Positions 8,515 to 37,718 of a stretch of DNA of 43,621 bases are shown here, piece by piece. The notes below the pieces were generated by a model, which had not been told where the DNA came from, did not search any database, and saw nothing but the letters and a program-made list of their open reading frames with translations. Position 1 is the first letter of the stretch. Each line of letters starts with the position of its first letter. This DNA comes from an uncultured Nitrososphaeria archaeon (GTDB lineage: Archaea; Thermoproteota; Nitrososphaeria_A; Caldarchaeales; Wolframiiraptoraceae), in the NCBI GenBank assembly GCA_964540045.1, contig CAZILE010000001.1, positions 1 through 43,621 on the forward strand, written 5' to 3'. The position numbers and the translations under genes are program-made.

Positions 8515-9822
8515 GTGAAGGATATGAGCGGAGAAGATGAGCTGAAGAATCTATTAAACTTGATTAGACTTCACAACGTTTGGAGGAGGAACGAGTGCAT
8601 AAATCTGATAGCATCTGAGAACGTTACATCCCCCTTAGTCGACGCAGTTTATCTCTCGGACGCCATGCACCGATACGCGGAGGGTCTTCCGTTCAAGCGC
8701 TTCTATCAAGGTACGAAATATGTTGATGAGATTGAGGAGAAAGTCTCAAAGATCTTCACTAAGCTCTTTGAAGCTAGGTACGCTGATGTCAGACCGATCT
8801 CTGGGACGATCGCGAACGCCACGGTCTTCACGGCCTTGGCCAAGAGCGGGGACGAGGCCGCAGTAATCCCTCTTCCGGGAGGAGCTCATGTAAGCCATTC
8901 GAAGTACGGAGTTCTCGGAAGGCTTGGGATAAAGCCCATTGAGCTGCCGATAGTCCCGGAGGAGCTGATCATCGACGTGGATAAAGCGATAAAGCTGATC
9001 AGAGAAAGATCGCCTAGAATGGTGGTTCTCGGAGCAAGCGTCATAATGTTCCCACATCCGGTAAAAGAGATCTCGGAAGTCGTCAAGGAGATTGGGGCAC
9101 GGCTGATCTTCGACGCCGCACATGTCTTAGGTCTAATAGCGGGGAGGACTTATCCCAATCCATTGGCAGATGGAGCTGATGTCGTATCAACATCAACGCA
9201 CAAGACTTTTCCCGGGCCTCAGGGAGGAGCAGTAATTACGGATGAAAGCGAGATCTATGAGAGAGTCTCTAAGATAGTCTTCCCGGTCTTCGTCTCAAAT
9301 CATCACCTCCACAGACTGGCGGCCCTCGGGGTCGCGGCGCTCGAGATGGAGAAGTTCGGAGAGGCTTATGCGGGCCAGATTCTCAGAAACTCTAGAAGGC
9401 TTGCGGAAGAGCTTCACTCTAGAGGATTTAAGGTTCTCGGCGAGGATAAAGGTTTCACTAGGACACATCAGGTTCTTCTAGATGTTAAGAAGAATGGTGG
9501 AGGAGCCAGATGTGCCAAGGCTCTTGAAGAAGCGAACATAATCGTGAATAAGAACATCTTACCTTGGGATAAGCCGAGCGATATTAAGAACCCCTCTGGG
9601 ATGAGGATCGGAGTCCAGGAAGTTACTAGGATGGGGATGAGGGAGGGGGAGATGGAGGAGATCGCGGAGTTTATTCACCGAGTGATAAAGAAGGAAGATG
9701 ACCCGAGCGGGGTTCGCAAAGACGTGATCGAGTTTAAGAGTAAATTCAATAAGATACATTACACATTTGATGTGGATGCTGAGAAGATTGCCAAGGAGAT
9801 ATGCTCCCTCATCTCATGCTAG
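8515..9822 (+). CDS. glyA: Serine hydroxymethyltransferase
   Basis: LIASENVTSP and the PLP-lysine motif STSTHKTFPGPQGG. Length 435 aa. Confidence 0.95.
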   Translation: MKDMSGEDELKNLLNLIRLHNVWRRNECINLIASENVTSPLVDAVYLSDAMHRYAEGLPFKRFYQGTKYVDEIEEKVSKIFTKLFEARYADVRPISGTIANATVFTALAKSGDEAAVIPLPGGAHVSHSKYGVLGRLGIKPIELPIVPEELIIDVDKAIKLIRERSPRMVVLGASVIMFPHPVKEISEVVKEIGARLIFDAAHVLGLIAGRTYPNPLADGADVVSTSTHKTFPGPQGGAVITDESEIYERVSKIVFPVFVSNHHLHRLAALGVAALEMEKFGEAYAGQILRNSRRLAEELHSRGFKVLGEDKGFTRTHQVLLDVKKNGGGARCAKALEEANIIVNKNILPWDKPSDIKNPSGMRIGVQEVTRMGMREGEMEEIAEFIHRVIKKEDDPSGVRKDVIEFKSKFNKIHYTFDVDAEKIAKEICSLISC

Positions 9823-10800
9823 CTCCTCTCTAGCCCTCTTAGCGGCTTCCACCATGTTTCTAAGCTTGGCTAGAGCTATATCCCTCTTCAATCTCTTAAG
9901 CCCGCAGTCTGGCTTCACGTAAAGCCTCTCCGGAGGCACGACCTCCAATCCCCTCCAAATCCCTTCAACTATCTCCTCAACAGGCTCCACCCTCGAGCTA
10001 TGCACATCAATTACTCCCAGCGCTAGCTCCTTGTCAAAAGAGTATTCTTTCAGCAAGTCAAGTAGCTTGTAATTGCTGTTCTTCGTCTCGAAATCCAGCT
10101 GATCTAGAGGGAAGTCCAAGATCTCAGGAAAGAGCCGCTCAAGCTTTCCATAGCAGATATGAGTTATTCTCTTCACGCTCAAGCCTCCAAGCATTATCTC
10201 AAATGCTTCTCCAGCAATCTCAACATCATGCTTCTCTGCTCGAGTCGAGAGGGCTGGTTCATCAATCTGAATATGGGTTGCACCCGCTCTGACTAAGGCT
10301 TCTATCTCTTTTTTCAAGGCTTCGGCCAAGTCGAGTATCGCCCTCCTCATGTCTCCGTAAAATCTGTCAAAGCTCCAGGAATACAGGGTATATGGGCCGG
10401 TTAAGGTTATTTTCATGGGTCTCCCTCTAGCAAGGCTTGAGGCATACTTCCAGTCATCAACCACTATCTCATGCCTCCACTCAACTTTCCCAGCTATCAC
10501 GGGTTTTCTGAAATAGACATTATCGAATATCCTGACAGGATCGCTTATTTCGAATCCGCCGAGCTCTTCCGCGAAGAAAACGGCCATATCTTCTCTCCTT
10601 TGCTCTCCATCCGCGAGTATATCTAGTCCTACGCTAAGATAGTCCTCAATGGCCTTACGTACCGCCTCCCTTACCAGCGACTCGTATTCGGTTTCTCTGA
10701 CGCCCTTCTTTCTCAGCTGAAAAGCTTTCAACGCTTCTGGAAAGTATGGGTAACTTCCGACGACCGTAGTTCTGAGCTTATCTGGAAGCTTGTAGTTCAC
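9814..10800 (-). CDS. metE: Cobalamin-independent methionine synthase, catalytic (MetE C-terminal-like) subunit
   Basis: UROD/MetE-like fold signatures, with zinc ligand contexts ITHICYG and VKPDCGLKRL. Confidence 0.85.
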   Translation of the reverse strand: MNYKLPDKLRTTVVGSYPYFPEALKAFQLRKKGVRETEYESLVREAVRKAIEDYLSVGLDILADGEQRREDMAVFFAEELGGFEISDPVRIFDNVYFRKPVIAGKVEWRHEIVVDDWKYASSLARGRPMKITLTGPYTLYSWSFDRFYGDMRRAILDLAEALKKEIEALVRAGATHIQIDEPALSTRAEKHDVEIAGEAFEIMLGGLSVKRITHICYGKLERLFPEILDFPLDQLDFETKNSNYKLLDLLKEYSFDKELALGVIDVHSSRVEPVEEIVEGIWRGLEVVPPERLYVKPDCGLKRLKRDIALAKLRNMVEAAKRAREELA

Positions 10801-11786
10801 CCAAACCTCACCTCCGCCTCCGCCAGAACCCTTCCCAAGGTGTCAAGCTTCTTAACCGCCTCATTAAACGGGAGGTAATCGAGCCAAGAGCTGGTTGAGA
10901 AGATTAGAGTTTCAGGAGAAATCGAGTCAAACATGGAGCTAACCCAATAGACTATCTCCCTAGGGTCCTCTGGGAATATACTCCGAGAGTCAATCACCCC
11001 GAGGCTGAGAAGCCTTCGATCAAATCCATGTTCCAGTAAAGCTTCCTTCGCTGCTTCCACCGTTGATCTCAAGTCTAAGTGGAGACCGGCTTTCACCTCG
11101 AGCAGTAGCGAGTATTTCTCCGGATCTAGGTTAAAGTAGGTTGCTACAATGATATTATCGCTTGAAAATCTCACCCTTGATAGAAGCTCGTTCACCATCT
11201 CGATCCCCCTAAGCCTATCCGCGCGGCCAAGCTCGGGATCAACAAGCGAAGGTTCATCAACTTGGATGAAGTCAGCGACCTCTCCTAAAGCGTCGATCTC
11301 AGATTTCAGAGCCTCGATCAAATCGCTTATCAGCAGATCCTCGGAGCTATAGAACAAGTTTTCAGAGAGCTTTAGGAAAGTGTAGGGGCCTGGAACCACC
11401 GCCTTTACGAGACTCGAAGTATATCGCCTTACTGCTCGCACCTCATCCACCGTTACCGGCCCGCTCCACCTAATTTGACCGACTATCGCTGGACATCGAT
11501 AATAGAAATTATTATCAAAGAATCTTAGAAGCCTTCTCGGCTCAAGTCCGGAAAACCTCGTGGCAAAGGGTCTCAAGAGATCATGCCAGGTCAACAGCCC
11601 GCTCGTTATGAGAGTCAGTCCGGTATTCTCTTGCAATTTCACGATCTCCAGAGTGGAGCTCTCTAAGACTTTCTCGAACTCCTTTTCTCCAATCTTCCCG
11701 GCGTTAAGATCATCTAACGCCCTCCTGAGAGCTGGAGGTCTTGGGAAGCTTCCGCAAATTCCAGCGAGAATCCTCATACTGGTCAA
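10797..11786 (-). CDS. MetE N-terminal-domain-like protein (non-catalytic paralogue, split MetE)
   Basis: Paralogous to the downstream metE ORF with a 4-bp start/stop overlap. It lacks the HxC and DCGL zinc ligands (STSSWLDYLP at the equivalent site). Confidence 0.7.
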   Translation of the reverse strand: MTSMRILAGICGSFPRPPALRRALDDLNAGKIGEKEFEKVLESSTLEIVKLQENTGLTLITSGLLTWHDLLRPFATRFSGLEPRRLLRFFDNNFYYRCPAIVGQIRWSGPVTVDEVRAVRRYTSSLVKAVVPGPYTFLKLSENLFYSSEDLLISDLIEALKSEIDALGEVADFIQVDEPSLVDPELGRADRLRGIEMVNELLSRVRFSSDNIIVATYFNLDPEKYSLLLEVKAGLHLDLRSTVEAAKEALLEHGFDRRLLSLGVIDSRSIFPEDPREIVYWVSSMFDSISPETLIFSTSSWLDYLPFNEAVKKLDTLGRVLAEAEVRFG

Positions 11787-14027: not shown

Positions 14028-14086
14028 CCCGATGATGAGGATTGACCTGCTCGGAGTTTGATGAGGAACATGCACCTCCCTGAGGG
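14028..14086 (+). ncRNA. Candidate C/D-box sRNA (unverified)
   Basis: CCC-G-AUGAUGA (14032-14038), 12 nt, degenerate D' UCGG, 4 nt, UGAUGA (14059-14064), 15 nt, CUGA (14080-14083), then GGG. About 59 nt with a CCC/GGG terminal stem. It overlaps the possible 5' end of the next ORF. The D' box is poor and the second spacer is long. Confidence 0.25.
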
Positions 14087-14372
14087 AATTATTGAGCAAC
14101 ATAAGATCTCAATCAAGATTTTAGGTCCTTTGAAAGAAATTTCCGAGAGCAGTGTCTTCGAGGTGACCGCTCGTAAGGGCGAGAACATCTTGGACATCTT
14201 GAAGAAGCTTCCGGCGGAGCTTAGAGGGAGGATAATTAAGGATGATGAAATTTCTCCTGATCTTCTCGTGCTCGTTGATGGGGTTGAAGCATCTTGTTTA
14301 GGGCGCCTCGAGGAGGTATCCGTCAACGATGTTAAGGAAATTATTCTAATCCCAGTTATTCATGGAGGATAG
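14058..14372 (+). CDS. Urm1/SAMP-type ubiquitin-like beta-grasp protein ending in Gly-Gly
   Basis: C-terminus PDLLVLVDGVEASCLGRLEEVSVNDVKEIILIPVIHGG-stop parallels eukaryotic Urm1 (..GILVLINDADWELLG...FISTLHGG). Start uncertain (TTG 14058, ATG 14061 or ATG 14070). Confidence 0.75.
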   Translation: MMRNMHLPEGIIEQHKISIKILGPLKEISESSVFEVTARKGENILDILKKLPAELRGRIIKDDEISPDLLVLVDGVEASCLGRLEEVSVNDVKEIILIPVIHGG

Positions 14373-14378
14373 GGGTTC

Positions 14379-14945
14379 TTGAGCCTCATCAACTTCAGTG
14401 ATAAATGGGTTGCCGCCTCAGTTCGCAAAAACCCTAGGAAAGAGTTTCTCGAGAATCCGGTTGCTTTCCTCGATAAGCTGAGAGAAGCAAATAAGCAGGC
14501 GGTTATCCAAGTTTTTGATGCTAGATGCGTGATCTCGGTTAGGCAGATTCATGCAACAGCAGTCGCAACCTACTTGGCGTTCAAGGCCGGCACGAATGTC
14601 TCCAAAAAGTTTGAGATAGAGCTTCTAGTTAGGTTGGCTGCGGATACTCAGATAGGGAGAACCCTTGATAGGCTTGGGGTGGACCCTGAAACTAGGGAGA
14701 TTGGATGCTGTGTGATGGTCGATGGCAAAGACTTAGCCCTCAAAATATCTAGAGACCTCTTTCAGTTAGTTGGAGGAGATGATATGAGCGAGAGCGAGCT
14801 GAAGGAGGAGCGTAGGTTAAGGGAGGCCATGAAGTTTTATGGAATAACTGAGAAGGAGGTCGAATCTGTTCAAGCGCAAACCAGAGCCGAGGCCGTTCTC
14901 CTCCTGATCCTAGAGCGGATTGCGACACTAGACCTAAAGAGGTAA
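14379..14945 (+). CDS. cgi121: KEOPS complex subunit Cgi121
   Basis: IQVFDARCVISVRQIHATAVATYLAFKAGTNVSKKFEIELLVRLAADTQIGRTLDRLGV matches the Cgi121/TPRKB core pattern. TTG start. Confidence 0.6.
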   Translation: MSLINFSDKWVAASVRKNPRKEFLENPVAFLDKLREANKQAVIQVFDARCVISVRQIHATAVATYLAFKAGTNVSKKFEIELLVRLAADTQIGRTLDRLGVDPETREIGCCVMVDGKDLALKISRDLFQLVGGDDMSESELKEERRLREAMKFYGITEKEVESVQAQTRAEAVLLLILERIATLDLKR

Positions 14946-17985: not shown

Positions 17986-18639
17986 TCAGGGTTGGAGGCC
18001 GACCTTATCCTTAACTCTTTTCAGAAAAGAACTCAAGGACCCAGTTATTTTATCTCCCCAATATTCTGGCTCCGTTAAGATCTCTTCGGAGGGCTCCGGC
18101 CGCCGCACCCTTCTGCTGATGTACTTGAGCTCCATTGTTTCAACACCTCTTAGGGTGCTTTCCAAAAGCTTCTGCCTCTGAATCCCGATCGAGACCGCTA
18201 CTTGGACAACTTGACCTTTAGAATTCACCCTGAAGACGCTGAACTTGAGGTCTTGAAGCTTCCTAGTCCGAGCATATTTCAGCGGATCTATGACGAGGGC
18301 GACAGCCTTTGGAAACATCTTCTGATACATCTTCTGAGTCTCCACATCTATCGCTGAGAGGAATATGCTGAAACCTGGATGAGAGTGATACCACCCAACT
18401 ATATACAATCCTGGCCTATTTCGGAGAACCCATTCAGCCGCAGCTGCGATCGTATCCTCTTCTAGGTAAACAAATCCCGGGGTCGATTTTTGATCTCCTG
18501 TAATCGCATCCCAGATCTCTAGAATATCACTTTTCTTCAAGTATTTTCCTATTAGAAGGCCTGCGACCTCCCTCTCTAGATCGTTTAACGTGTGCTTGAT
18601 TATCTTGCCTAAAGCCAACGGATATACTCTAGCTCTCAT
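17986..18639 (-). CDS. JAB1/MPN/Mov34 (JAMM) metalloisopeptidase, Rpn11-like
   Basis: Complete JAMM motif: E in LEREVAGLLIG, then GWYHSHPGFSIFLSAID (HxHx7Sx2D). Divergently transcribed from the ubiquitin-like gene. Confidence 0.9.
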   Translation of the reverse strand: MRARVYPLALGKIIKHTLNDLEREVAGLLIGKYLKKSDILEIWDAITGDQKSTPGFVYLEEDTIAAAAEWVLRNRPGLYIVGWYHSHPGFSIFLSAIDVETQKMYQKMFPKAVALVIDPLKYARTRKLQDLKFSVFRVNSKGQVVQVAVSIGIQRQKLLESTLRGVETMELKYISRRVRRPEPSEEILTEPEYWGDKITGSLSSFLKRVKDKVGLQP

Positions 18640-18793
18640 TCTTGAAGTAACTAGAACTTAAGGGGAATTTAACGCTTAACAGCCTATGAGTTAGATAGAT
18701 ATACGTGCTCTGCTGGCCAATATCTGTTAAAGCCTTCGTAGCTTGGTCTACAAAGTCCAGAAAATTCGTGTATGAGCAGGCTCTTCCGACACA

Positions 18794-18801
18794 TTTATAT
18801 A
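18794..18801 (+). promoter_or_regulatory. TATA-box candidate for the ubiquitin-like operon, with downstream Shine-Dalgarno
   Basis: TTTATATA lies 42 nt upstream of ATG 18843. GGAGGT at 18829-18834 is 8 nt before the ATG. Confidence 0.5.
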
Positions 18802-18842
18802 GCGTATCTTGTGGATAGATTTCAGATAGGAGGTTTGAGTTT

Positions 18843-19079
18843 ATGAAAATCAGGATTGTTCCAGCCATTGGCGGGGGCAGCCCCATAGAGCTTGAGGTTT
18901 CGCCTGCTACAACGATAGGGGCCATTAGAGCGAAAGTTTGCGCTATGAAGAAGCTTCCACCTGATACCACGAGACTTACCTTCAGAGGTAGGGCGCTTAA
19001 GGATACTGAGACTTTGGAATCTATTGGAGCTCAGGATGGCGATAAGCTCATATTGATAACTAGAACGGTCGGCGGATAA
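18843..19079 (+). CDS. Ubiquitin-like protein (true ubiquitin family), mature-form C-terminus RTVGG-stop
   Basis: 78 aa. It aligns by eye along its full length with ubiquitin (LEV.P..TI..(I/V)(R/K)AK(V/I)......PPD..RL.F.G..L.D..TL......(I/L).L(I/V)......GG) and ends directly in GG. Confidence 0.9.
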   Translation: MKIRIVPAIGGGSPIELEVSPATTIGAIRAKVCAMKKLPPDTTRLTFRGRALKDTETLESIGAQDGDKLILITRTVGG

Positions 19080-19155
19080 AACTCTCAAAATTTTCTCGAA
19101 AGCCCTCGCTCCGCTCAAAATTAATTACATGGCTGTCTAAATTAAGGATATAGTC

Positions 19156-19635
19156 TTGAGGACTGAGCTTCCTGAGGCTTTATGGAATAGAAGGCTGGCT
19201 CTAGAATATAAGCTAATGCGGGAAAACGAGCCGACCTTCGATATCGTAAATGACCAACTAACCCGTTACAGAGGGGTCATAATAGGCGAGGGGCTGTATG
19301 AAGGAGGATTCTTTAAGATCGAGATAACTGTTCCTAGAGAATTTCCCTATGTGCCACCTGATGTGATTTGGTGGACAAGAATCTGGCATCCAAACTTCAC
19401 CGATGAAGTTCCAGCGAGAATCTGCGAATCCATATTCAAGAATGACTGGAGCCCTTCGCTTCACATATTCTCCATAATTGAGGCTTTGAGAAACCTTCTA
19501 AATAACCCCAATCCAGACGATCCCTTAAACACCTTCGCCGCCGCCGAGATGAAATATAGACCTGACATATTTGAGGCAAGAGTCAGGAGGTATATTGAGC
19601 TGTATGCCAGGCCGGAGTTAGCGTTCCAAGAGTGA
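19156..19635 (+). CDS. Ubiquitin-conjugating enzyme (E2, UBC fold)
   Basis: RIWHPNF (HPN motif) followed by ARICESIFKNDWSPSL, with the catalytic Cys codon at 19423-19425. N-terminal RRLALEYKLM helix. TTG start. Confidence 0.85.
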   Translation: MRTELPEALWNRRLALEYKLMRENEPTFDIVNDQLTRYRGVIIGEGLYEGGFFKIEITVPREFPYVPPDVIWWTRIWHPNFTDEVPARICESIFKNDWSPSLHIFSIIEALRNLLNNPNPDDPLNTFAAAEMKYRPDIFEARVRRYIELYARPELAFQE

Positions 19636-19681
19636 AGATAATACTCATATAAGCCGTGCGAGCTCGGTTTATCTTGTAGGG

Positions 19682-20863
19682 ATGGAAGAGGAGGAGAGGA
19701 AGCTGCTAGAGAGATATGATCGCCAGCTAAGGGTTGAGGGATGGGATCAAGAGAGGCTCACTAAGTCATCCGTGATTATCGTGGGCGTTGGCGCTACTGG
19801 ATGTGAGGTATCTAAAAACTTGGCTCTTATGGGAGTAGGCAAGTTAATCCTGATAGACAACGACGTTATCGAACTCTCAAACCTCAGCAGGCAGATGCTC
19901 TTCTTAGAGGAAGATATAGGTAAGTCAAAGGCGCTTGTTGCCGCGGAGAGGTTGAGAAAGATGAATCCCTTCGTGGAAATCGAGGCTTACTTTGAAGACG
20001 TTAGGAATATTGACGAAGGCTTATTCGATAAAGCGAACGTGATAGCATCATGTCTCGACAACTGGCCCGTGAGGAGATGGCTCAACTCCCTAGCAATCGA
20101 GCTTAACAAGCCCTTAGTGGATATCGCGATGGAAGGCTTTTATGCTAACCTTCAGGTGATCATTCCGGGAAAGACGGCATGTTTAGAATGTCATGGAGAA
20201 GACTTGATACCTAAAGAGGTTCAGCTCGCTGAATGTACTCTGAAGAGAAGAAGACCAGAAGACTTAGTTCAAGATCTTAAATCGGCTGGAGTAAACGTGA
20301 GCTTGAAGCTGGCCAAGAAGCTATTTGATCACAACATTAAAACAATCTATGACTTAAAATACGCTCAGGAAGGCGCCTTGATGAAATTGGATGAAAAGAC
20401 TCAAAAGATCGTGAGGGATATCAGAGAGAAGCTTAAGCCGAAGATGCCAGCCCTTCAGAGCGTCGCCGCGCTGATCTCCGGAATAGCCTCAACCGAAATA
20501 ATTAAGATCCTTCACGGGGATAGGCTGGGAGAGCCCATTAAGGACCTCCTTGTTTATGATGGCTTGGCAGGGCAGTTCACCAGGGTGAAGCTTGACCGCA
20601 ACCCGGAATGCTTCGTCTGCGGGGATCTGGTTGAGGAGGAGATAAAATTTCCCGTTAAGCCAACCGAGACTATTCTGGATCTGAAAAAGAGAATAGCTGA
20701 AACCTTCAGTATCCCCGACCCAGAGATTCTTTACGGTAGCTGGAGGCTCGCTGATGACAAGAGAGTTTCCGAGATAGGGCTTAGGGAGAACGACACGATA
20801 TACATTAGCACCAGCAGAAGATTTATGCCACTACAACTGAGAGTTCAGATAGTGGAGGAGTGA
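19682..20863 (+). CDS. Ubiquitin-activating enzyme-like protein (E1; ThiF/MoeB adenylation domain + C-terminal ubiquitin-fold domain)
   Basis: RYDRQLRVEGW..VIIVGVGATGCEVSKNLALMGVGKLILIDNDVIELSNLSRQ adenylation signature. CxxC pairs CLEC and CFVC. Candidate catalytic Cys in AECTLK. C-terminal roughly 75-aa beta-grasp-like tail. Confidence 0.9.
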   Translation: MEEEERKLLERYDRQLRVEGWDQERLTKSSVIIVGVGATGCEVSKNLALMGVGKLILIDNDVIELSNLSRQMLFLEEDIGKSKALVAAERLRKMNPFVEIEAYFEDVRNIDEGLFDKANVIASCLDNWPVRRWLNSLAIELNKPLVDIAMEGFYANLQVIIPGKTACLECHGEDLIPKEVQLAECTLKRRRPEDLVQDLKSAGVNVSLKLAKKLFDHNIKTIYDLKYAQEGALMKLDEKTQKIVRDIREKLKPKMPALQSVAALISGIASTEIIKILHGDRLGEPIKDLLVYDGLAGQFTRVKLDRNPECFVCGDLVEEEIKFPVKPTETILDLKKRIAETFSIPDPEILYGSWRLADDKRVSEIGLRENDTIYISTSRRFMPLQLRVQIVEE

Positions 20864-21111
20864 CCTACATGGGAAGAATTCTCATAGAAAAGGAGAAAAA
20901 GGTCGGAGACTGGGATCTAAGATTCGAGGAGGAAAACAAAGAGGCTAGAGCGAATATCTGTCCCGTCTGCTCCCTCGAGATCGAGGAGGGCGCGCCGGTC
21001 TTCGAGTGTCCCTTCTGCGGAAATGTCATGCATATGAGATGCGTTCAACCATGGATTGAGAGCCGAGGGACTTGCCCAATTTGCCGAAGACCTTTATCTG
21101 AGAGCTCCTAG
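20860..21111 (+). CDS. Small RING-like zinc-finger protein (candidate E3)
   Basis: CPVC-x12-CPFC-x4-H-x2-C-x10-CPIC with the RING-H2-like tail HMRCVQPWI..GTCPICRR. Start is either GTG 20860 (overlapping the E1 stop) or ATG 20869, which is preceded by GGAGGAG. Confidence 0.85.
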   Translation: MTYMGRILIEKEKKVGDWDLRFEEENKEARANICPVCSLEIEEGAPVFECPFCGNVMHMRCVQPWIESRGTCPICRRPLSESS

Positions 21112-21161: not shown

Positions 21162-21485
21162 GTGGAGCCGAAGTACCTTAGCACCCCTAAGGGTAAGATC
21201 CCGACCTACGACTTCGCTCTAGGGGTTCTGAAGGCAGTTAAGGTTTTAGATGACGTTACAGCAGAACTTGAGGAGAGATTGAACAAGCTTGAGAAAGCTG
21301 GCACCCCAGGACTGGATGAGCTGAGAGAGAGGCTGGAAAGAGTTGAGAGAACTTTAGAAGATCTAGGGAAAAAGTTGGACCTGGATCTTGAGGAAATTAA
21401 TGATAAGCTGTCCACGCTGGCGGATGCGTTCAACGAGCTCTTAGAGAGAGTTCAAAGGCTTGAAGAAACTTTGTCTAAGGGCTGA
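21162..21485 (+). CDS. Coiled-coil protein, unknown function
   Basis: 107-aa ORF with heptad-rich E/L/K sequence (ELEERLNKLEK..LRERLERVERTLEDL). GTG start and no internal Met. Confidence 0.45.
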   Translation: MEPKYLSTPKGKIPTYDFALGVLKAVKVLDDVTAELEERLNKLEKAGTPGLDELRERLERVERTLEDLGKKLDLDLEEINDKLSTLADAFNELLERVQRLEETLSKG

Positions 21486-22338
21486 CGACAGCGCGCCTCA
21501 TATCTGCTATGAGCTTCTCAAGGTTGGAGCGCTTCGCCTCAAGCTCCTTTACTTCGGCTTCCAGCCTCCGCTTACGTTCATTTAACGTGTTTAGCTCGCT
21601 TCTCAGCTGGAGGACTTTTCTTTCAAGCTCCTCCGCCTCTTCCTCCTTCTCCCTCAATTTCGATAAAGATCGTCTGAGCTCGGCTTCCTTTCTGATAAGC
21701 CTTTCCATCCTTATTTCCCTGAGCTTGAAGTCCCTGAGAAGCTCCTTAAGCATGTCTCCAAGCTTGCTTCTAGCTTCTTCAAGCTCTTTCAAATAACGAT
21801 TCTCCAGCTCAGAAACCTTGCGCTCAAGGTCGAGCTTCTTATCCTCAAGCTGCTTGAGCTCGGCCTCCCTTAACGCTAAATTTCTTTCCTTCGCGTCCAA
21901 CTCATCTCTCCACTTTCTAAGCTCTTCCCGGATTACTGCTAATTCGCTCTTCTCCTTTAAGACCATCTCCGCGTCCTGTTTAACCGCTTCACGCTCCTTG
22001 CTCAAAGTCTCAATTACATCCTTCAGGCCATCTTGAATTGAGAGAAGAGTGTTTTCGTAAAACTTAACTTGCTCGAGCCCCTCAGCAATCTTCTCAGCTC
22101 TCTCAACAAACTGAGATAAACTTAGTTTCATTGCATCCGGCTGAGAGGACAGATCGCTGAGAAGCGATGAGGCCTCTGCCAACCTAGCCTCAATCCTTCT
22201 AAGAGATTCTTGAAGAGAATCCAGTCTCATAGAGAATTCTTGTTCAAAGCTTCTCAATTTCTCTTCAAGCTTGCTCTCAACCTCTTCAATCTTTTTTCCT
22301 CCAAATGGCGTCATTCCGAAATCATTGAGCAGAAGCAT
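21475..22338 (-). CDS. Long coiled-coil protein, unknown function
   Basis: 287 aa, almost entirely heptad-repeat E/K/L/R sequence. Its 3' end overlaps the convergent coiled-coil ORF by 11 bp. Confidence 0.6.
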   Translation of the reverse strand: MLLLNDFGMTPFGGKKIEEVESKLEEKLRSFEQEFSMRLDSLQESLRRIEARLAEASSLLSDLSSQPDAMKLSLSQFVERAEKIAEGLEQVKFYENTLLSIQDGLKDVIETLSKEREAVKQDAEMVLKEKSELAVIREELRKWRDELDAKERNLALREAELKQLEDKKLDLERKVSELENRYLKELEEARSKLGDMLKELLRDFKLREIRMERLIRKEAELRRSLSKLREKEEEAEELERKVLQLRSELNTLNERKRRLEAEVKELEAKRSNLEKLIADMRRAVVSP

Positions 22339-22423: not shown

Positions 22424-23152
22424 GTGAGGGGGAGTTGCGCGAAGTTGTTCACCACTAGAGAAGAAGTCTTATCAAGATTGTATAAGATAGGGTCAGGCGC
22501 AGCGGCCATAGGAGCAATCCATATACTCACCCTTCTCATGAGCTGGTATGTTCAAGTAATCGATGGATCTGAGATACCGATCGAGGGGTGGATAATACCG
22601 GAAGCGAGAATTATGTCGCTCGTCGGAGGTCTTATGGCCGGCATAGGAATAATCGTGATACACTTTATCAAGAGACTTAAGTCCATGAAAATTCTCTTGG
22701 GCTCTCTAATAGTTGTAGGGGGGGCATTAGCAACGCTCTCGCCCGTCTACTCTTACATGTTCTGGTTATCAAATATTGTAACTTACCCGAGATTCGATTT
22801 GGGATTCTTCGCGTCAGCCTTCACCGGCGTCATTCAGCTAGGTATCGGAGCACTCGCATTACTCACCCCTGTTAAGGAAGAAGTAATTCCATCAGCAGTC
22901 GTACCTTCCCCGATCACTTTACCGGAAACCGGCGTAGTTACCCGAGGCCCCAGCAGATCCACAACTGCCAGGCTAGTCCCCGTCTCGGACGTCGAAGAAG
23001 CAATCTGCAGCCTATGTTTTGAGCCGATAGCTCAAGGGGATGCAGTGAGGTGCAGTAATTGCGATGCGATATTCCATAAAGGATGCGTTGATGCTTGGGT
23101 GAGCGTTAACGGAACATGTCCGAGCTGTAAGGCCATAATAACTGGAAGCTAA
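22424..23152 (+). CDS. Membrane protein (about 4 TM helices) with C-terminal RING-like zinc finger (candidate membrane-anchored E3)
   Basis: Four hydrophobic segments, a P/S/T-rich linker, then CSLC-x11-CSNC-x4-H-x2-C-x10-CPSC (codons 23006-23128). The spacing is essentially that of the operon finger at 20860-21111. GTG start. Confidence 0.7.
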   Translation: MRGSCAKLFTTREEVLSRLYKIGSGAAAIGAIHILTLLMSWYVQVIDGSEIPIEGWIIPEARIMSLVGGLMAGIGIIVIHFIKRLKSMKILLGSLIVVGGALATLSPVYSYMFWLSNIVTYPRFDLGFFASAFTGVIQLGIGALALLTPVKEEVIPSAVVPSPITLPETGVVTRGPSRSTTARLVPVSDVEEAICSLCFEPIAQGDAVRCSNCDAIFHKGCVDAWVSVNGTCPSCKAIITGS

Positions 23153-32204: not shown

Positions 32205-33314
32205 ATGAGAGAGCTTGAGAGGCTTGCGGCTGAGAGAGCTCGCGTAGCCGTCAAATACGATAAGATTGGGATGAAGAACGAGGCAGCGAAGCAGTATCGC
32301 GAGGCGATAGCACTTCTAGAGAAGCTTATAGAGCTTACGGAGGATCCTGTGATGAAGAAGATCTACGAGGAGAAGCAGCAGCAGTATAGAAGGAGAGTGG
32401 AAGCGCTGAGCGAAACGCTCTATGTGGGGGATGGAGAGAAGGGTAAGGGTCTTACTGATGTTGAAGAAAGTTTCGTGATCCAAAATCCTCCGCCGATCAA
32501 ATGGGATGATGTCATAGGCTTGGAGAGAGCGAAGAAAGCGATACTTGAAAGCATAATCTATCCCATGAAGAGGCCGGACCTATTCCCTTTAGGGTGGCCC
32601 CGCGGAATACTTCTCTTCGGACCTCCGGGATGCGGTAAAACGATGATCGCAGCAGCAGTCGCTAACGAAATAGACGCGATCTTTATGCATGTTGATGCCT
32701 CAGTCATAATGTCTAAATGGCTTGGAGAATCTGAAAGGAATATCTCGATGATCTTTAATGCTGCTAGGAAGTATGAGGCTTCGGGGAAGCCCGTCATAAT
32801 ATTCATTGATGAGGTTGACTCGCTTACAGCTATAAGGGTGAACGAAGTCGGAGGAGAGGCCAGAGCGAGAAACCAATTGATTAAGGAGATGGATGGGTTG
32901 CTTGATAAGGGGAGGCAGAGCATGATTTACGTCTTGGCGGCCACGAACAAGCCTTGGCTCCTCGACGAGCCTTTCATCCGAAGATTCCAGAAAAGAATAT
33001 TCATTGATTTACCAGATTATGAGGCTAGACTCAAGCTGTTTCAACACTATGCGGGGAAACTGAATCTTGACGGCGATGTAGAGTTATCTGAACTCGCTAG
33101 GATAACTAATGGATATTCTCCAGCCGATATTCATGCGATATGTGTAGAAGTTCAAACCAGGATCGTTAGCGAATTCTTTGAGAGAGGTGGGGAAGAGCCT
33201 AGAAAGATCAAGATGGAAGACTTCTTAGAAGTTATTAGAAGTAGGAAGCCCAGCCTAGATCTCAGAGGCGTTGAGAAAATGCTTAAATGGAATGAAAGGT
33301 TCGGGACGAGCTAG
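32205..33314 (+). CDS. cdvC: Vps4-like AAA+ ATPase CdvC (MIT domain + AAA domain)
   Basis: N-terminal three-helix MIT-like region (AAKQYREAIALLEKLIELTEDP..YRRRVEAL), Walker A GPPGCGKT, Walker B IIFIDEVDS. Confidence 0.9.
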   Translation: MRELERLAAERARVAVKYDKIGMKNEAAKQYREAIALLEKLIELTEDPVMKKIYEEKQQQYRRRVEALSETLYVGDGEKGKGLTDVEESFVIQNPPPIKWDDVIGLERAKKAILESIIYPMKRPDLFPLGWPRGILLFGPPGCGKTMIAAAVANEIDAIFMHVDASVIMSKWLGESERNISMIFNAARKYEASGKPVIIFIDEVDSLTAIRVNEVGGEARARNQLIKEMDGLLDKGRQSMIYVLAATNKPWLLDEPFIRRFQKRIFIDLPDYEARLKLFQHYAGKLNLDGDVELSELARITNGYSPADIHAICVEVQTRIVSEFFERGGEEPRKIKMEDFLEVIRSRKPSLDLRGVEKMLKWNERFGTS

Positions 33315-34048
33315 CCTACGAGCTCTATTAACCCCTTCTCCTCTAACTTTTCGAGTATTTGCTTCACCTGCTTGACATCTATCCCAAGCTCCTTAGCACA
33401 TCTCCTCAGGTCGATCTCTGATCCCGATTTTGAGAGATAAGAATAAACAAGCTGTTCCTTTTCGGAAAGCTTTGGGACGTCAGGGAAAGATTGCCTGACC
33501 TTCTCAGCAGCCACCTTCTGAGCCTCTTCCAGAACCCTTCTCACATCCTCACTTACATCCTCAGACACGCTTAGATCGAAATCACTGACCGTCGTAACTC
33601 CAGCGAAGTCTTCGATATAACATGCGAGCTCGTGAAGGTTCTTAGCCGCTTCCGGAGCTACTCCAGCAACTTCATCCTGAACCTCGGTTATCAGAGAGAG
33701 CAAGGGTATCACGAGTCCCATCAGCTCGCTTACCTCGAGAACGGTCTCAAGCCTAAGCTTAACCTGCTCAAGCAGCAGCTGAGTCCTTCTAACAACTTTG
33801 ACCAGCTTTCTGATCTCGGCGATTTCCTCCGCGTAAATCGACGCCCTCTCTTCATCCCCGGAAGCCATGGCATCCACAACTTGCTCAAAGTACTCCTTAC
33901 TCTTCGAAGTCATCTCCTGATACTTCGAGCCAAGTTTCATGATTTGGGCATTCAACTGATTCAATGATTGCTCAAGCTTCAGCCTTATCTCCTCTCGAGC
34001 CTCTTCATCCACGAATGGATCTTTTCTAAGACCATCTGCGTCAAACAT
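33311..34048 (-). CDS. cdvB: ESCRT-III-like protein CdvB (Snf7 core + MIM2-like motif + C-terminal winged helix)
   Basis: Helical Snf7-like core, proline motif SFPDVPKL (33467-33487), then a wH (LVYSYLSKSGSEIDLRRCAKELGIDVKQVKQILEKLEEKGLIE). Confidence 0.8.
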   Translation of the reverse strand: MFDADGLRKDPFVDEEAREEIRLKLEQSLNQLNAQIMKLGSKYQEMTSKSKEYFEQVVDAMASGDEERASIYAEEIAEIRKLVKVVRRTQLLLEQVKLRLETVLEVSELMGLVIPLLSLITEVQDEVAGVAPEAAKNLHELACYIEDFAGVTTVSDFDLSVSEDVSEDVRRVLEEAQKVAAEKVRQSFPDVPKLSEKEQLVYSYLSKSGSEIDLRRCAKELGIDVKQVKQILEKLEEKGLIELVG

Positions 34049-34165: not shown

Positions 34166-35620
34166 CTAAGCTAATCTAGACTTGAAAAGTAACCTTGTCT
34201 CGCCCATGGTTTTCAGCTCGATCTCCCTCACCCTGACCACAACCGGTAGATCGTTCACAACTTTTCCTATCACGAGACAATGTCTAGGTGGAAGCATCTT
34301 AGCTATGCGCCTCACGGTATCGGCATCCACCCTAGAAGCTCTCGAAATGTAGTTTAGGTCCAACTCGTTGGTGAAGTTAAATAGGAATATGTTGTCGGCC
34401 TGCCTGTAGACCGTCTCAGGTATGCTATCTGGCTGATTCGTTACGAAGATCGGGAAGATCCCTATATGCCTCATCCTAGTTATCAGGTCATCCCAATAAG
34501 TCTCTCTGAGATATAGATGAGCTTCCTCCGCCACAAGGAAAAATGGGTCTATTATACCATCCTTCAAGAGGCTTGAAAGCTTACTCAGAAGATACTCAAC
34601 TATCATCTTCCTCGTTTGGAGAAGAGCTTTAGAGAGGTCCACGACGAATATTCCACCACCGCTTTTCGAGTTCAATACCTTTTCGAGCTTCGTAGAATTC
34701 TCGTCATCGAAGAAGCCGGTCTCACTGAGGCTGAGAAGTCTGCTCATCAAAGCCTCCCGGACCGACTCGTGCATCTGAGCCCTGCTGACGACTTCTATCA
34801 GTTTTCTCAGGGTAACCTTACCCTCATATTTCTTCACGAGACCCCATATTCTTATGAACTCCCTTATGCTGGTGGCTGGGGTTAAGAGGATATGTTGAAG
34901 GATGTCGGTCATGGTTTTCAGCCCGGCGTCCTCCACCGAGACCCTGAAGTTTTCCCCAGGGGTGAGAATCACATGTTTGTCCGCGATCTTGCTAGATGAT
35001 CCTTTTATGGTTTGAGATAAGCCAAGGTACTCGCCGTTTATATCTAGAATGATCGCCTTGGCGCCGTGTTCCGCTAGAGCCGTGATTAAGATCTTCGTTA
35101 GATATGATTTTCCGGTTTCCTTCTTTCCCGTGATTATCGTAAGCCTCCCATCCAGATCCTCCACATTTATCGTCATCGTGCCGTTCATGCATTTACCCAA
35201 GATAAGCTGCCTCCTACCGTAGGTGTGCGATAGCTCTGAGATTAGCTCGGGGGAGGCTTTCTCGATCCTCGAGTTGAACCTGGATGGAAGCCAGATCAGG
35301 TCATTTCTAAGAGTTCCATTAACTATTATCCCCCTGAACTTTGCTATTATCCTCCTAGAGTCCTTCACTCCTATGAGAATCGATCCGACATCGTATGGAT
35401 CAAAGTTTTTTATGGAGATCGATTCGGAGGCGAGCTCCCTCAGGGCGTCCTCGAGAATTCCAGGAACATCAGCATACTCAACATCTATAACCTGCGCTAG
35501 AAGAGTTTTACCTTCATCTATTATCAGGATATAGTCTCCCCGAGTCAGCGGATCTTCTCCAGGTAAGGCCAGAAGCTCAATCGTGTCTCCATTCTTGGCC
35601 AGAATCTTCATCTTCTCCAC
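34166..35620 (-). CDS. herA: HerA/FtsK-superfamily ATPase (DUF87-type, HerA-like)
   Basis: N-terminal HAS-barrel-like region (GDYILIIDEGKTLLAQVIDVEY), Walker A LTIITGKKETGKSY..AIILDINGEY, Walker B FFLVAEEAHLY, IFVTNQPDSIP arginine-finger region. Confidence 0.8.
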   Translation of the reverse strand: MEKMKILAKNGDTIELLALPGEDPLTRGDYILIIDEGKTLLAQVIDVEYADVPGILEDALRELASESISIKNFDPYDVGSILIGVKDSRRIIAKFRGIIVNGTLRNDLIWLPSRFNSRIEKASPELISELSHTYGRRQLILGKCMNGTMTINVEDLDGRLTIITGKKETGKSYLTKILITALAEHGAKAIILDINGEYLGLSQTIKGSSSKIADKHVILTPGENFRVSVEDAGLKTMTDILQHILLTPATSIREFIRIWGLVKKYEGKVTLRKLIEVVSRAQMHESVREALMSRLLSLSETGFFDDENSTKLEKVLNSKSGGGIFVVDLSKALLQTRKMIVEYLLSKLSSLLKDGIIDPFFLVAEEAHLYLRETYWDDLITRMRHIGIFPIFVTNQPDSIPETVYRQADNIFLFNFTNELDLNYISRASRVDADTVRRIAKMLPPRHCLVIGKVVNDLPVVVRVREIELKTMGETRLLFKSRLA

Positions 35621-36714
35621 TCTCCATCTAAGGGATTGAAGAGAATATCTCGTATTGAGGATGCCTTGAAGAACTCGGCTCCGAATCGCTTGAGGAGGGA
35701 TTGAATTGCTATCACGTCGCTCTTGGTGAAGGTGCAGTAATCATGAGCAAGTATAAGGAGCTCTGGATATCCGTAAATCAGTGGATCGCTCTTCAGCAGG
35801 CTCCCGAAAACCTCCTCGATCTTTCTATTGGTCGACGCATCTACTCTAAAGGCGTTGAGACCTGAGCTGAGCTTTGCGAGGAAGGTTTTGCCCAGAACCT
35901 TCACTTTCATCTCTATTTTCTTGATAAGCCAGGTCATGTCCACTAGGTAGGGGGGCTTAACCCCGACTCTATCCTCCGTGAACACCGCTGACCAGAACTG
36001 GAGGATGCTCGTCTTGGAGAATGCTAGAACATCGTTGCCTCCGGGCTTAGCCTTCTCGAGAATTCTTGAGACAAGCCAGAGAGGGTTGTCTAGAGGACCT
36101 GCTGAGAGCGAGCCATCCAGGAGGAGGATGTTGTCTCGGAAGCGCTCAACGACATATTCTTGGATTCTTTTCTCAAGAAGCCCTGCCAAGATCTTCTGAA
36201 CCGAACCGTCGAGCTGATAGTCCGAGAACTCGAGAGGCGTGAACTCCCCTAAGATCGATCCTAAGACCTCGGGCAGGTTATCATGGGTAAGATACGCTAT
36301 GAAGGGGCCTATTCGTTGAATCTCCAGTCCAAGCTCATTTCTAGTGACTATGCTCCCTCTTGCTCCGATCGCCAGCCCTCCTCTTCCAGCTGCAACGATT
36401 ATCGAGGAGGTATCTATGGCCACAACCTGCCTCTCAGCCGCATCTTCGAGAGGAATCTGGACCGTTGAGACATCTACTCTCTGAGCCTCCTCAAGAAGCC
36501 AGAGAGGCCAGTCATTTTGAGCAAGATCCTCTTCATGAAAATCTGTGGACTGAGCCCCGCCAGCTAGGCTGAGACTTCTTCTACCCGTCTCTAGGAAAGA
36601 TTTAAAGAGCTTCTCGAAGCCATTTAACTTGGGTTGAGTAAGTTGCCGCATGCCCCAGCTTTCCCCGATTTTATTGAGCTTACTGTGCTTATAAATGTTG
36701 CTCAATTTGAGCAA
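35608..36714 (-). CDS. nurA: NurA-like nuclease (RNase H-fold)
   Basis: NurA motifs VVAIDTSS, NILLLDGSL, GYPELLILAHD. 13-bp overlap with herA. The track start (36714) is TTG. ATG at 36651 (MRQLTQ) is more plausible and restores a 71-bp promoter region. Confidence 0.65.
   Translation of the reverse strand: MLKLSNIYKHSKLNKIGESWGMRQLTQPKLNGFEKLFKSFLETGRRSLSLAGGAQSTDFHEEDLAQNDWPLWLLEEAQRVDVSTVQIPLEDAAERQVVAIDTSSIIVAAGRGGLAIGARGSIVTRNELGLEIQRIGPFIAYLTHDNLPEVLGSILGEFTPLEFSDYQLDGSVQKILAGLLEKRIQEYVVERFRDNILLLDGSLSAGPLDNPLWLVSRILEKAKPGGNDVLAFSKTSILQFWSAVFTEDRVGVKPPYLVDMTWLIKKIEMKVKVLGKTFLAKLSSGLNAFRVDASTNRKIEEVFGSLLKSDPLIYGYPELLILAHDYCTFTKSDVIAIQSLLKRFGAEFFKASSIRDILFNPLDGEWRR
36689..36696. promoter_or_regulatory. 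Shared TATA-box candidate in the divergent nurA-herA / wH-paralogue-1 promoter
   Basis: TTATAAAT lies about 27-34 nt upstream of ATG 36723 (+) and about 38-45 nt upstream of ATG 36651 (-). Confidence 0.45.
36698..36714. promoter_or_regulatory. Perfect 17-bp palindrome (8-1-8), candidate operator
   Basis: TTGCTCAA-T-TTGAGCAA sits between the TATA candidate and ATG 36723. An extra half-site, TTGAGC, is at 36674-36679. Confidence 0.5.
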
Positions 36715-36722
36715 GATTCAAA

Positions 36723-37169
36723 ATGAGCAAAGAAGAGAAAATCAGGGTAGAGATCGTCATAGGGCCCGCTACGGTTAGGGTGGAGGCTCCACCCGACAAG
36801 CTTGAAGAAGCCGTAAAAAACGCCATCACGGCTTTAAAGTCAGCTCTACCTCAGCTTGGAGCGGAGATAGAGCAGGAGAAAGCGGCTGTGGCCAAGCCCG
36901 AGAAGCCCAAGCGCAGACCAACTCCAACATGCTCCGAGCTTATTAGAGGCTTGATCGAAGAGGGGTGGTTTGATGAGGCGAGAACCCTCTCAGAGGTTGT
37001 TCAAGAGCTTGCGAAGAGGGGTTATCATTATGATTCCACGGCGGTATCGCACAGTCTTCTTGATCTAGTTAGAGAACGCGCGCTCATAAGGGAAGGCGTT
37101 CCAAGGCGGTATACCTATCGTAAAGCCTCATTCGATCAGAGGGATCTTAAGCCGTCCACAGAGCTCTAA
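36723..37169 (+). CDS. Small winged-helix protein, paralogue 1 of 4 (unknown family)
   Basis: N-terminal KIRVEIVIGPATVRVEAPPDKLEEAV module, a K/P/E-rich linker, and a C-terminal wH (TLSEVVQELAKRGYHYDSTAVSHSLLDLVRERALIREGVPRRYTYR). Confidence 0.65.
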   Translation: MSKEEKIRVEIVIGPATVRVEAPPDKLEEAVKNAITALKSALPQLGAEIEQEKAAVAKPEKPKRRPTPTCSELIRGLIEEGWFDEARTLSEVVQELAKRGYHYDSTAVSHSLLDLVRERALIREGVPRRYTYRKASFDQRDLKPSTEL

Positions 37170-37202
37170 AGCATTGAGGCTAAGCAAGAGCACTTAACTA
37201 GT

Positions 37203-37718
37203 TTAACCTTCGCAACGTTCTCCGGATTCGGGCTTTGAATATTTATCTGCTAGATACTTTATGCCTAAAGTCGTTATCGTATAGTCTCCACGGTCAAGCC
37301 TTCTGAGAAGCTCAGCCTGAACCAGCTTGGTTAAGTTATTTAAGATTGTCTTCTTTTTCGCAGAGAGGCTTGATTCAAGCTCCATGGAGCTGATGTTCGC
37401 GCTCCCGATTCTCCCTAGCTTATACTCAAGATACTTCCTCAAGGCTAAAAATAGGATAGCGTCCGAAACTGATTTCAACTTGTTAAGACTCAGCTTGAAG
37501 AATATCCCTTCCTGCTCGTTGTAGGCGAGTATATTGCTGAAAGTCTCAAAGAGATCGCTCAGATCCATGCTGAATGAAATTTTTCTCGCCAGAGAGTAAG
37601 CTGGAAGAGCCTTCTCTATGAAGGAAACCACCTGCCGGTAGACCACCTCAGGAGGACCCGTGAACTCTGCCCCGAGATCACCATACCTTATGATTACCTT
37701 AAGTTCCTCGGAGCTCAT
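37203..37718 (-). CDS. Small winged-helix protein, paralogue 2 of 4
   Basis: N-terminal LKVIIRYGDLGAEFTGPPEVVYRQV module. C-terminal wH (ISSMELESSLSAKKKTILNNLTKLVQAELLRRLDRGDYTITTLG). 4-bp overlap with the upstream paralogue. Confidence 0.65.
   Translation of the reverse strand: MSSEELKVIIRYGDLGAEFTGPPEVVYRQVVSFIEKALPAYSLARKISFSMDLSDLFETFSNILAYNEQEGIFFKLSLNKLKSVSDAILFLALRKYLEYKLGRIGSANISSMELESSLSAKKKTILNNLTKLVQAELLRRLDRGDYTITTLGIKYLADKYSKPESGERCEG

Follow-up and report, generated by a model that had tools for sequence, protein, structure and literature searches.

The 43,621-nucleotide stretch of DNA analysed here (the window), from a Wolframiiraptoraceae contig (CAZILE010000001.1), carries at positions 17986-21111 a five-gene cassette that is very probably functional and orthologous to the ubiquitylation system of the Caldiarchaeum type, which is eukaryote-like; the genome belongs to a Wolframiiraptor-like member of the Caldarchaeales (Aigarchaeota). 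The cassette itself is not new but another example of a known, already characterised system. The ubiquitin operon of Caldiarchaeum subterraneum (CSUB_C1473-C1477) was described in 2011 (Nunoura et al., PMC3082918); its cascade, with ATP-dependent activity of E1, E2 and the small RING finger protein (srfp) and deconjugation by Rpn11, was reconstituted in vitro in 2017 (Hennell James et al., PMC5654768), and the system was solved structurally in 2018 (Fuchs et al., PMC6043591). Its physiological substrates were stated as unknown (PMC5654768). New beyond this known system are a ubiquitin that is independent of processing and a conserved, undescribed block of proposed ligase genes, in which srfp is joined by two coiled-coil genes (cc107 and cc287) and a gene for a membrane-anchored RING protein (TM-RING); these three neighbours appear to belong to the system. 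Below, CsUb and CsRpn11 denote the C. subterraneum ubiquitin and Rpn11, and compared loci are given by L numbers.

Five adjacent genes encode a ubiquitin cascade

In a six-frame list of open reading frames (ORFs), five genes occupy 17986-21111, one on the minus strand followed by four on the plus strand (Table 1), with a spacer of 203 bp between the divergent genes for the JAMM protease and ubiquitin (Ub). An earlier note on this DNA had named five adjacent ubiquitin-cascade genes here, and each was found in its place with a score exceeding the curated gathering threshold of its Pfam family. Because the E-values are so small in five adjacent ORFs, the cassette is not there by chance. A motif check found all of its catalytic and ligand residues intact, and profile hidden Markov model searches established that the 78-residue protein is not a ThiS/MoaD protein and that the 159-residue protein has the UBC fold.

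The modifier, described in the earlier note as a ubiquitin homologue ending in GG, matches the Pfam ubiquitin family (PF00240, E=7.8e-13), and the Pfam search gave it no ThiS, MoaD or Urm1 match. Its closest solved structures in the PDB are those of CsUb (6fj7, 2mqj and 5zew, E~1e-39), and human Ub also matches (~7e-9). Residues T46, K53, K68, K31 and K36 are shared with CsUb, whereas Arg stands in place of CsUb K4, which is among the three sites of chain formation in vitro, and of CsUb K48. The E2 covers positions 2-139 of the 140 in the UQ_con profile (PF00179, 2.9e-29), and among solved structures it comes closest to eukaryotic E2s, in the range of ~1e-19 to 1e-23, with UBE2K first (1.6e-23) and UBE2T, UBE2N and UBE2D also present. 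The HPN motif and catalytic Cys that had been claimed for it are in place (H78-P-N and C90, its sole Cys), together with P64-Y-V-P-P in loop 4 and W98-S-P-S in loop 7. Across loci in which E1 is 63-76% identical, Ub reaches 88-97% and E2 74-91%; this far better conservation points to strong purifying selection on Ub and E2.

The E1 matches Pfam ThiF (4.2e-62) and, at residues 319-378, a ubiquitin fold (3.8e-7). Its motifs comprise the glycine loop G35xG37xxG40, C167xxC170, C185 and C310xxC313, and in 19 homologs G35xG37AxG40, N67, R70, K83, D126, C167, C170, C185, C310 and C313 are invariant. In the PDB, the active adenylation domains of UBA1 and UBA3 matched at 1e-35 to 1e-40 and ThiF/MoeB at 1e-26 to 1e-28. 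To compare folds we used an AlphaFold2 (AF2) model of the protein (pLDDT 85.1, pTM 0.78), which fits human UBA3 from end to end (3gzn_B, the best Foldseek match, E=1.3e-28, TMq 0.70), followed by SAE2, whereas ThiF covers the adenylation core only (TMq 0.55). UBA3 has likewise been reported as a structural relative of the C. subterraneum E1. Sequence and model thus agree with the three-part E1 of the earlier note: the predicted architecture has an adenylation Rossmann domain, a helical insertion bearing Cys185, a Zn site and a C-terminal ubiquitin-fold domain.

The srfp gene matches Pfam zf-RING_2 (1.4e-10), and its PDB relatives are the RING-H2 ligases EL5 (4.6e-9), RNF38, RNF126, RLIM, RNF4, HRD1 and Praja-1. 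Its start overlaps the E1 stop, as had been suspected, by 4 nt from a GTG at 20860; public gene calls use instead an ATG at 20869, 5 nt past the E1 stop, which gives 80 residues. The ligands are C34, C37, C50, C53, H58, C61, C72 and C75, with W65 and R76 also present, and a G-x-W motif ahead of the RING is invariant across the compared loci. The closest solved relatives of E1, E2 and srfp are all eukaryotic, in keeping with the eukaryote-like E1-E2-E3 logic proposed for the cassette.

The divergently encoded protease is the Rpn11-like JAMM enzyme that had been announced, with its site intact. It matches Pfam JAB (1.5e-17) and, in the PDB, CsRpn11 as its closest solved structure (6fju, E=4.9e-61; 54% identity over 175 aligned positions) as well as yeast and human Rpn11 (about 7e-18 to 1e-17). 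The MPN+ motif reads H85-x-H87-x7-S95-x2-D98, and the catalytic E24, as read from sequence, lies in E24-V-A-G-L-L. In the eukaryotic proteasome lid, Rpn11 is an obligate heterodimer with the inactive MPN partner Rpn8. In contrast, neither the ORF list nor the Pfam search of the window contained a second, Rpn8-type MPN gene adjoining the JAMM gene. CsRpn11 is monomeric and active by itself.

Ubiquitin is encoded in its mature form

CsUb is made as an 87-residue precursor whose nine-residue tail stops activation by E1 until Rpn11 removes it (PMC6043591, PMC5654768). The window Ub has no such propeptide: its ORF ends in TRTVGG followed directly by TAA, so that Gly77-Gly78 is terminal. The stop likewise follows GG directly in eight of the 13 Aigarchaeota loci (L002-L005, L012-L015), besides the window itself, and the other five (L006, L007, L009-L011) encode C-terminal tails of 7-15 residues. 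We therefore treat the propeptide, on the basis of these sequences, as a variable of lineage and not as a defining feature of the Caldiarchaeum-type operon. As the window Ub is encoded mature, the JAMM protease should be needed for deconjugation only and not for Ub maturation. Database forms of 91 and 99 residues from this clade were considered as longer Ub proteins and dismissed, as they merely reflect upstream start-codon calls. A Ub that needs no processing would simplify reconstitution and separate deconjugation by JAMM from precursor maturation.

A conserved gene block, a proposed ligase module, extends the cassette

The earlier note closed the cassette at 21111, which is too short: two conserved coiled-coil genes and a second RING gene follow, up to 23152. 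The TM-RING protein matches zf-RING_2 (1.7e-9) at residues 195-236 and has four hydrophobic segments; the public gene call starts at 22445 and gives 235 residues. Its ligands, C195x2C198x11C210x2C213x4H218x2C221x10C232x2C235, have the Cys/His spacing published for C. subterraneum srfp, from which the window srfp departs by one residue in the first RING loop (12 residues as opposed to 11). Neither RING protein of the window has the C3H2C3 ligand order of RING-H2 domains; both read C-C-C-C-H-C-C-C. C. subterraneum srfp, which is active, deviates at the fourth ligand in the same way. Judging by sequence, srfp and TM-RING are probably ligand variants that work like RING-H2 ligases. At the positions of the E2-binding hydrophobic residue, the helix Trp and the linchpin, srfp has V36, W65 and R76 and TM-RING has L197, W225 and K236.

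An AF2 model of TM-RING (pLDDT 84.6) comprises a four-helix membrane bundle, in which a beta-hairpin separates TM1 from TM2, then a disordered linker and, where the RING lies at the C terminus, a beta-beta-alpha domain (pLDDT 78-91). The hairpin is predicted to be extracytoplasmic, and the RING would face the cytoplasm on its membrane anchor. In a Foldseek comparison of the full-length model the membrane domain dominated the result, with weak matches to claudin/TARP tetraspan proteins (E>=1.5e-3, TM 0.34-0.55), which we take as a resemblance of topology and not as homology. TM-RING forms 39 clusters in the clade, and all of those with names are called 'hypothetical protein'. Fuchs et al. mentioned a 'second E3 protein' beside the C. 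subterraneum operon (PMC6043591), and searchable literature yielded no description of the membrane anchor of TM-RING or of the coiled-coil genes. TM-RING is likely the second E3 of this ubiquitin system.

Between the two RING genes lie cc107 and cc287. No specific family in Pfam, NCBIfam or PADLOC accounts for cc107, which drew coiled-coil noise only, and the matches of both proteins to SMC, Rad50, LmuB, JetC, arcadin-4 and Filament were set aside as generic coiled-coil similarity that offers no functional lead. The cc107 gene directly follows srfp in every related locus that reaches that far, and even the most divergent loci keep its N-terminal TP-x-G motif unchanged. An exhaustive search of 1.84 billion representatives with cc287 returned 16 matches at E<=1e-3, most of them near full length; as so small and specific a family, cc287 is not a generic coiled coil. 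It has conserved YEN-LLS-Q-G-KD, FKLREIR-ERL and MRRA-LSP motifs, and it adjoins srfp/cc107, TM-RING or both wherever the contig reaches.

The full order, JAMM / Ub-E2-E1-srfp-cc107 / cc287 / TM-RING-GlyRS (glycyl-tRNA synthetase), was found in L002, L003, L005, L006, L010 and L089, the TM-RING gene of L003 being detected by tblastn. The same order holds from E2 onward in the truncated L082. The E1 match P0106, considered for the genome of L083, belongs to a different assembly, GCA_002898355.1, which contributed one of the full eight-gene loci. The order is partly present in L001, L004, L008, L009, L011 and L081; a JAMM-motif match in L009 that runs antisense to E2/E1 was dismissed as chance.

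It is possible, if rather unlikely in our view, that cc107, cc287 and TM-RING are bystanders, kept in synteny by slow rearrangement of the region, and that the functional system has five genes. In favour of this, the loci also conserve plainly unrelated genes on either side (L21e, RpoF and KsgA to the left, GlyRS to the right), neither cc107 nor cc287 has an informative domain, and Calditenuaceae loci have Ub-E2-E1 but none of the three genes. Set against this are two kinds of locus in which the surroundings have changed. In L089 the left flank is wholly different, yet everything from JAMM through TM-RING and GlyRS is unchanged. In L083 (5128-7416) and L088 (5074-7384) srfp-cc107-cc287-TM-RING is contiguous despite altered flanks, including an inverted GlyRS gene in L088, and there is no Ub, E2, E1 or JAMM gene within ~6 kb; L085 (225-1676) keeps srfp-cc107-cc287, again with none of these genes within ~6 kb, on a contig that ends before the position of TM-RING. 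In these three loci cc287 is at 29-33% identity. Across these loci cc107 keeps its TP-x-G motif, srfp its G-x-W motif and TM-RING its membrane segments, and the RING ligands are conserved as well. Moreover, srfp, a proven E3 in the ortholog, sits within the block, and TM-RING has the same unusual C4HC3 ligand pattern.

Since the ligase block and Ub-E2-E1 are each found locally without the other, the simplest reading is a modular system, and we tentatively propose that the Caldarchaeales Ub system consists of a Ub-E2-E1 module, with or without JAMM, and a separable four-gene ligase module. On that simplest reading the activation/conjugation module and the ligase module are fused in the window. 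A role of cc107 and cc287 as partners or substrates is plausible but unproven. In the C. subterraneum assay heterologous Rad50 was modified on coiled-coil lysines (PMC5654768), which is suggestive but no more than that.

Several points weigh against a functional cascade of this extent. The canonical fourth RING-H2 ligand, a His in EL5, aligns with Asn55 of srfp, which has an extra Cys50, and in the Calditenuaceae loci L012-L015 no RING gene lies near Ub-E2-E1. The eight-gene unit is defined solely by gene neighbourhood, in which GlyRS, surely unrelated, is also often adjacent; cc107 and cc287 have no recognisable domain; and L083, L085 and L088 were seen as local contig stretches and not as whole genomes. 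Finally, the enzymology is carried over from an ortholog at 54-57% identity to a cassette known here from its genes alone.

Some details of the divergent loci were recorded in passing. The srfp copies of L083, L085 and L088 have Leu in place of the RING-helix Trp (W65 in the window), and in L088 a gene of the ThiS family is found upstream of srfp, two genes away. Among the Calditenuaceae loci L012-L015, JAMM is present in L012 only, and in L013 (5237-7170) Ub-E2-E1 is followed by an unrelated 187-residue protein with a coiled-coil start and then by exosome genes.

The srfp-cc107-cc287-TM-RING block supplies testable candidates for the partners, substrates or subcellular site of archaeal ubiquitylation. 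Should the coiled-coil proteins be adaptors or the physiological substrates, and should TM-RING ubiquitylate at the membrane, then pathways of membrane-anchored RING ligases, akin to endoplasmic-reticulum-associated degradation (ERAD) or trafficking, would have a prokaryotic forerunner in this system, which would also offer a first handle on archaeal ubiquitin targets. The Caldiarchaeum-type system is important for the origin of eukaryotic ubiquitin signalling, a picture that the window cassette leaves unchanged.

Other identities for the cassette

We then weighed whether the cassette might be something other than a ubiquitin system. A small archaeal modifier protein (SAMP)/Urm1 or ThiS-MoaD sulfur-carrier system, or a conjugation system with E1 only, could be misread as ubiquitin: models for ThiF, MoeB and UbaA recognise the adenylation domain of E1 as well, relatives are auto-annotated as 'ThiF family adenylyltransferase', and 4.5 kb from the cassette, at 14058-14372, there is a gene whose product ends in GG and is probably Urm1/SAMP-like. 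Like the cassette, the SAMP/Urm1-UbaA-JAMM1 system has a beta-grasp modifier ending in GG, an adenylating E1 of the ThiF type and a JAMM protease. However, it lacks E2 and E3, its E1 has neither the Cys insertion nor the ubiquitin-fold domain, and its modifier is of the ThiS/MoaD/Urm1 type, whereas the window modifier belongs to the ubiquitin family and is accompanied by a true E2 of the UBC family and by two proteins with RING domains. The window E1, which has both the Cys insertion and the ubiquitin-fold domain, fits UBA3 better than ThiF, and its NCBIfam ThiF/MoeB/UbaA scores fall far under their cut-offs (UbaA 99.6 bits against 450). We consider a SAMP-type identity highly improbable and already refuted by these profile and model-based structure comparisons, as the earlier note had concluded.

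Hardly more credible is a prokaryotic anti-virus Ub-like conjugation system of the Bil, CBASS (cyclic-oligonucleotide-based anti-phage signalling system) Cap2/Cap3 or 6A-MBL kind. Bacterial Bil and CBASS Cap2/Cap3 loci resemble the window in combining E1, E2 and JAB activities in one cluster, and PADLOC 'E1-E2' (Cap2-type) models do match the E1 adenylation region (1.5e-22) and JAB models the JAMM protein (2e-9), with weak NCBIfam matches to 6A-MBL cap2_3. Those bacterial systems, though, often have an E1 fused to E2, or E1 and E2 that diverge strongly; they have no RING E3, and their genes lie in defence islands. The window has separate, eukaryotic-type E1 and E2 genes; PADLOC gave no match for Ub or the RING proteins, nor did its defence-E2 models match the window E2; no effector or sensor gene is present; and the site is fixed among ribosomal and tRNA-synthetase genes across the whole order, with uniform guanine-plus-cytosine (GC) content.

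That the genes are a decayed or silent relic, a eukaryotic contaminant or a recent transfer is also most improbable: the source is an uncultured metagenome-assembled genome (MAG) known from genes alone, but the ORFs are intact with every catalytic residue, the conservation of Ub and E2 above that of E1 indicates strong purifying selection, a conserved, probable TATA box and a Shine-Dalgarno-like element lie upstream of Ub, and the flanking genes (PolD, L21e, RpoF, GatDE) are archaeal and free of compositional anomaly.

Comparison with known ubiquitin systems

The window is closest in kind to C. subterraneum. There a reverse-strand Rpn11-like gene precedes ubl-e2l-e1l-srfp, and the gene order of the window agrees with CSUB_C1473-C1477 (PMC3082918, PMC5654768), as the earlier note had stated; it was right, too, that the class of system is already known, having been reconstituted, crystallised and found in many MAGs. 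Common to both are a JAMM gene that runs divergently to Ub-E2-E1-srfp, a 'second E3' close by, a 78-residue mature Ub ending in TVGG, the PYxPP and WSPS motifs of E2 and the unusual RING ligands. The two differ in family-level lineage and, besides the Ub propeptide, in sequence: an E1 from a MAG labelled C. subterraneum is 57% identical to that of the window, and the JAMM proteins are 54% identical.

The earlier note had also mentioned related sets in Asgard archaea, and clusters there do bring together a Ub ending in GG, a UBC E2, an E1 with a ubiquitin-fold domain and a small RING protein. Their order, in contrast, is srfp-Ub-...-E2-E1, and their E1s are 31-36% identical to that of the window. 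The Asgard loci examined showed no adjacent JAMM gene and no detectable homolog of cc107, cc287 or TM-RING; missing RING tags there are not evidence of absence, as our RING regular expression misses Asgard srfp, which has another spacing. In L016, L020 and L021 a second, divergent E2-like gene lies on the opposite strand ~1 kb upstream of srfp.

With eukaryotic ubiquitin and NEDD8 cascades the cassette has in common the folds, the catalytic residues and the logic of E1, E2, E3 and deubiquitinase. It differs in its E1, which is one short chain and lacks a separate regulatory subunit, in having one E2 and two RING E3s arranged in an operon, in its free-standing JAMM with no adjacent Rpn8 gene, and in the Asn at the fourth RING ligand with its compensating Cys.

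Proposed mechanism

In our model, Ub is translated mature with Gly78 free, as the sequence shows. E1 would bind MgATP through its glycine loop, adenylate Gly78 and take up Ub as a thioester on Cys185, a step that we infer from the invariant residues and the UBA3-like model and that has been followed experimentally only in the C. subterraneum ortholog. The ubiquitin-fold domain of E1 would then recruit E2, and Ub would be handed to E2 Cys90 beside the HPN loop; C185 and C90 are the putative thioester sites.

A RING protein would next bind the E2~Ub conjugate and drive transfer of Ub to substrate lysines. We placed the RING-E2 contacts by mapping residues that were mutated in C. subterraneum: E2 P67/Y68 correspond to P64/Y65 in the window and P103/S104 to P100/S101, while srfp I30, W58 and R69 correspond to V36, W65 and R76. 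Accordingly placed, srfp V36 and W65 would contact loop 4 (P64/Y65) and loop 7 (P100/S101) of E2, with Arg76 as the linchpin. In the last step the Rpn11-like JAMM would strip Ub from conjugates, without being required for maturation of the modifier. ATP-dependent activation, E2 loading, srfp-dependent transfer and JAMM cleavage have been shown for the ortholog only and would apply here by analogy.

Extended to the eight-gene unit, the model would have the srfp-cc107-cc287-TM-RING ligase module supply a soluble and a membrane-anchored E3. The coiled-coil proteins may serve as adaptors, scaffolds or substrates, which is its least certain step.

Gene layout and transcription

When the JAMM/Ub intergenic regions of the window and of four related loci are aligned, the sequence TTATATA is invariant; it is a probable TATA element of the Ub operon. 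From it the genes from Ub to cc107 are probably transcribed as one polycistronic message, of which cc107 would be the last gene. A scan for sigma-70 promoters and intrinsic terminators returned fewer sites than shuffled sequence and was set aside, these models being unsuited to archaea.

Table 1. Genes and putative expression signals of the ubiquitylation locus (window positions)
Feature	Position	Strand	Remarks
Rpn11-like JAMM/MPN+ metalloisopeptidase	17986..18639	-	217 aa; Pfam JAB; divergent from Ub operon
TTATATA box, probable archaeal TATA element of Ub operon	18795..18801	+	cross-locus alignment
GGAGG Shine-Dalgarno-like element	18829-18833	+	9 nt upstream of Ub ATG
Ubiquitin	18843..19079	+	78 aa; Pfam ubiquitin; ends Gly77-Gly78 then stop
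UBC-fold E2 ubiquitin-conjugating enzyme	19156..19635	+	159 aa; TTG start; Pfam UQ_con
Canonical-type E1	19682..20863	+	393 aa; Pfam ThiF and C-terminal ubiquitin fold
srfp, small RING finger protein (E3)	20860..21111	+	83 aa; GTG start; Pfam zf-RING_2
cc107, coiled-coil	21162..21485	+	107 aa; 50 nt after srfp
cc287, coiled-coil	21475..22338	-	287 aa; convergent with cc107, 11-nt overlap
TM-RING, membrane-anchored, likely second RING E3	22424..23152	+	242 aa; four TM helices; C-terminal zf-RING_2

Chromosomal context and other genes of the window

To its left the cassette is bordered by genes for L21e, RpoF/Rpb4, DUF655, KsgA, L10e and an RNase H, and elsewhere the window encodes the PolD large subunit, serine hydroxymethyltransferase (SHMT), MetE, Cgi121, GlyRS, a tRNA-intron endonuclease and GatD/GatE, with even GC content throughout. 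This ordinary archaeal gene context and even composition argue for a stable chromosomal location. The L21e-RpoF-KsgA neighbourhood to which the earlier note had drawn attention is present here and kept across relatives, but it is not universal, L089 having another left neighbour.

The cassette occurs in dozens of relatives, with Aigarchaeota/Caldarchaeales MAGs at 51-83% E1 identity and Candidatus Wolframiiraptor as the nearest named genus among the E1 relatives. In close relatives, automatic annotation already gives the components the names 'ubiquitin family protein', 'ubiquitin-conjugating enzyme E2' and 'ThiF family adenylyltransferase'.

The gene at 14058-14372 (+) is a 104-residue ORF ending in VIHGG before its stop, with weak matches to Urm1 (Pfam E=0.0018) and to mouse Urm1/MoaD (PDB E=0.011-0.03). 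It lies directly upstream of the Cgi121/KEOPS gene (14379-14945). By sequence it probably encodes a SAMP/Urm1-type modifier, which would place both kinds of Ub-like modifier within 5 kb.

Genes of the division type that involves ESCRT (endosomal sorting complex required for transport) proteins lie ~9-11 kb from the ubiquitin cassette: a Vps4/CdvC-like ATPase with MIT and AAA domains (32205-33314, +) is convergent with a gene (33311-34048, -) for a 245-residue protein with a weak N-terminal Snf7 (ESCRT-III) match and a C-terminal winged helix, a CdvB-like architecture. An Arcadin-1 homolog (Pfam PF18653, 3.7e-26), of a family associated with the archaeal actin crenactin, is encoded at 173-511 (+). 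A HerA-like (DUF87) ATPase (34166-35620, -) and a weakly matching NurA-domain protein (35608-36714, -) are probably a HerA-NurA pair for DNA-end resection, and downstream of them, at 36723-38655, lie four small ORFs that belong to no family. Two adjacent half-size genes for cobalamin-independent methionine synthase (MetE-like; 9814-10800 and 10797-11786, both -) adjoin the SHMT gene and a gene resembling that for methylenetetrahydrofolate reductase (MTHFR).

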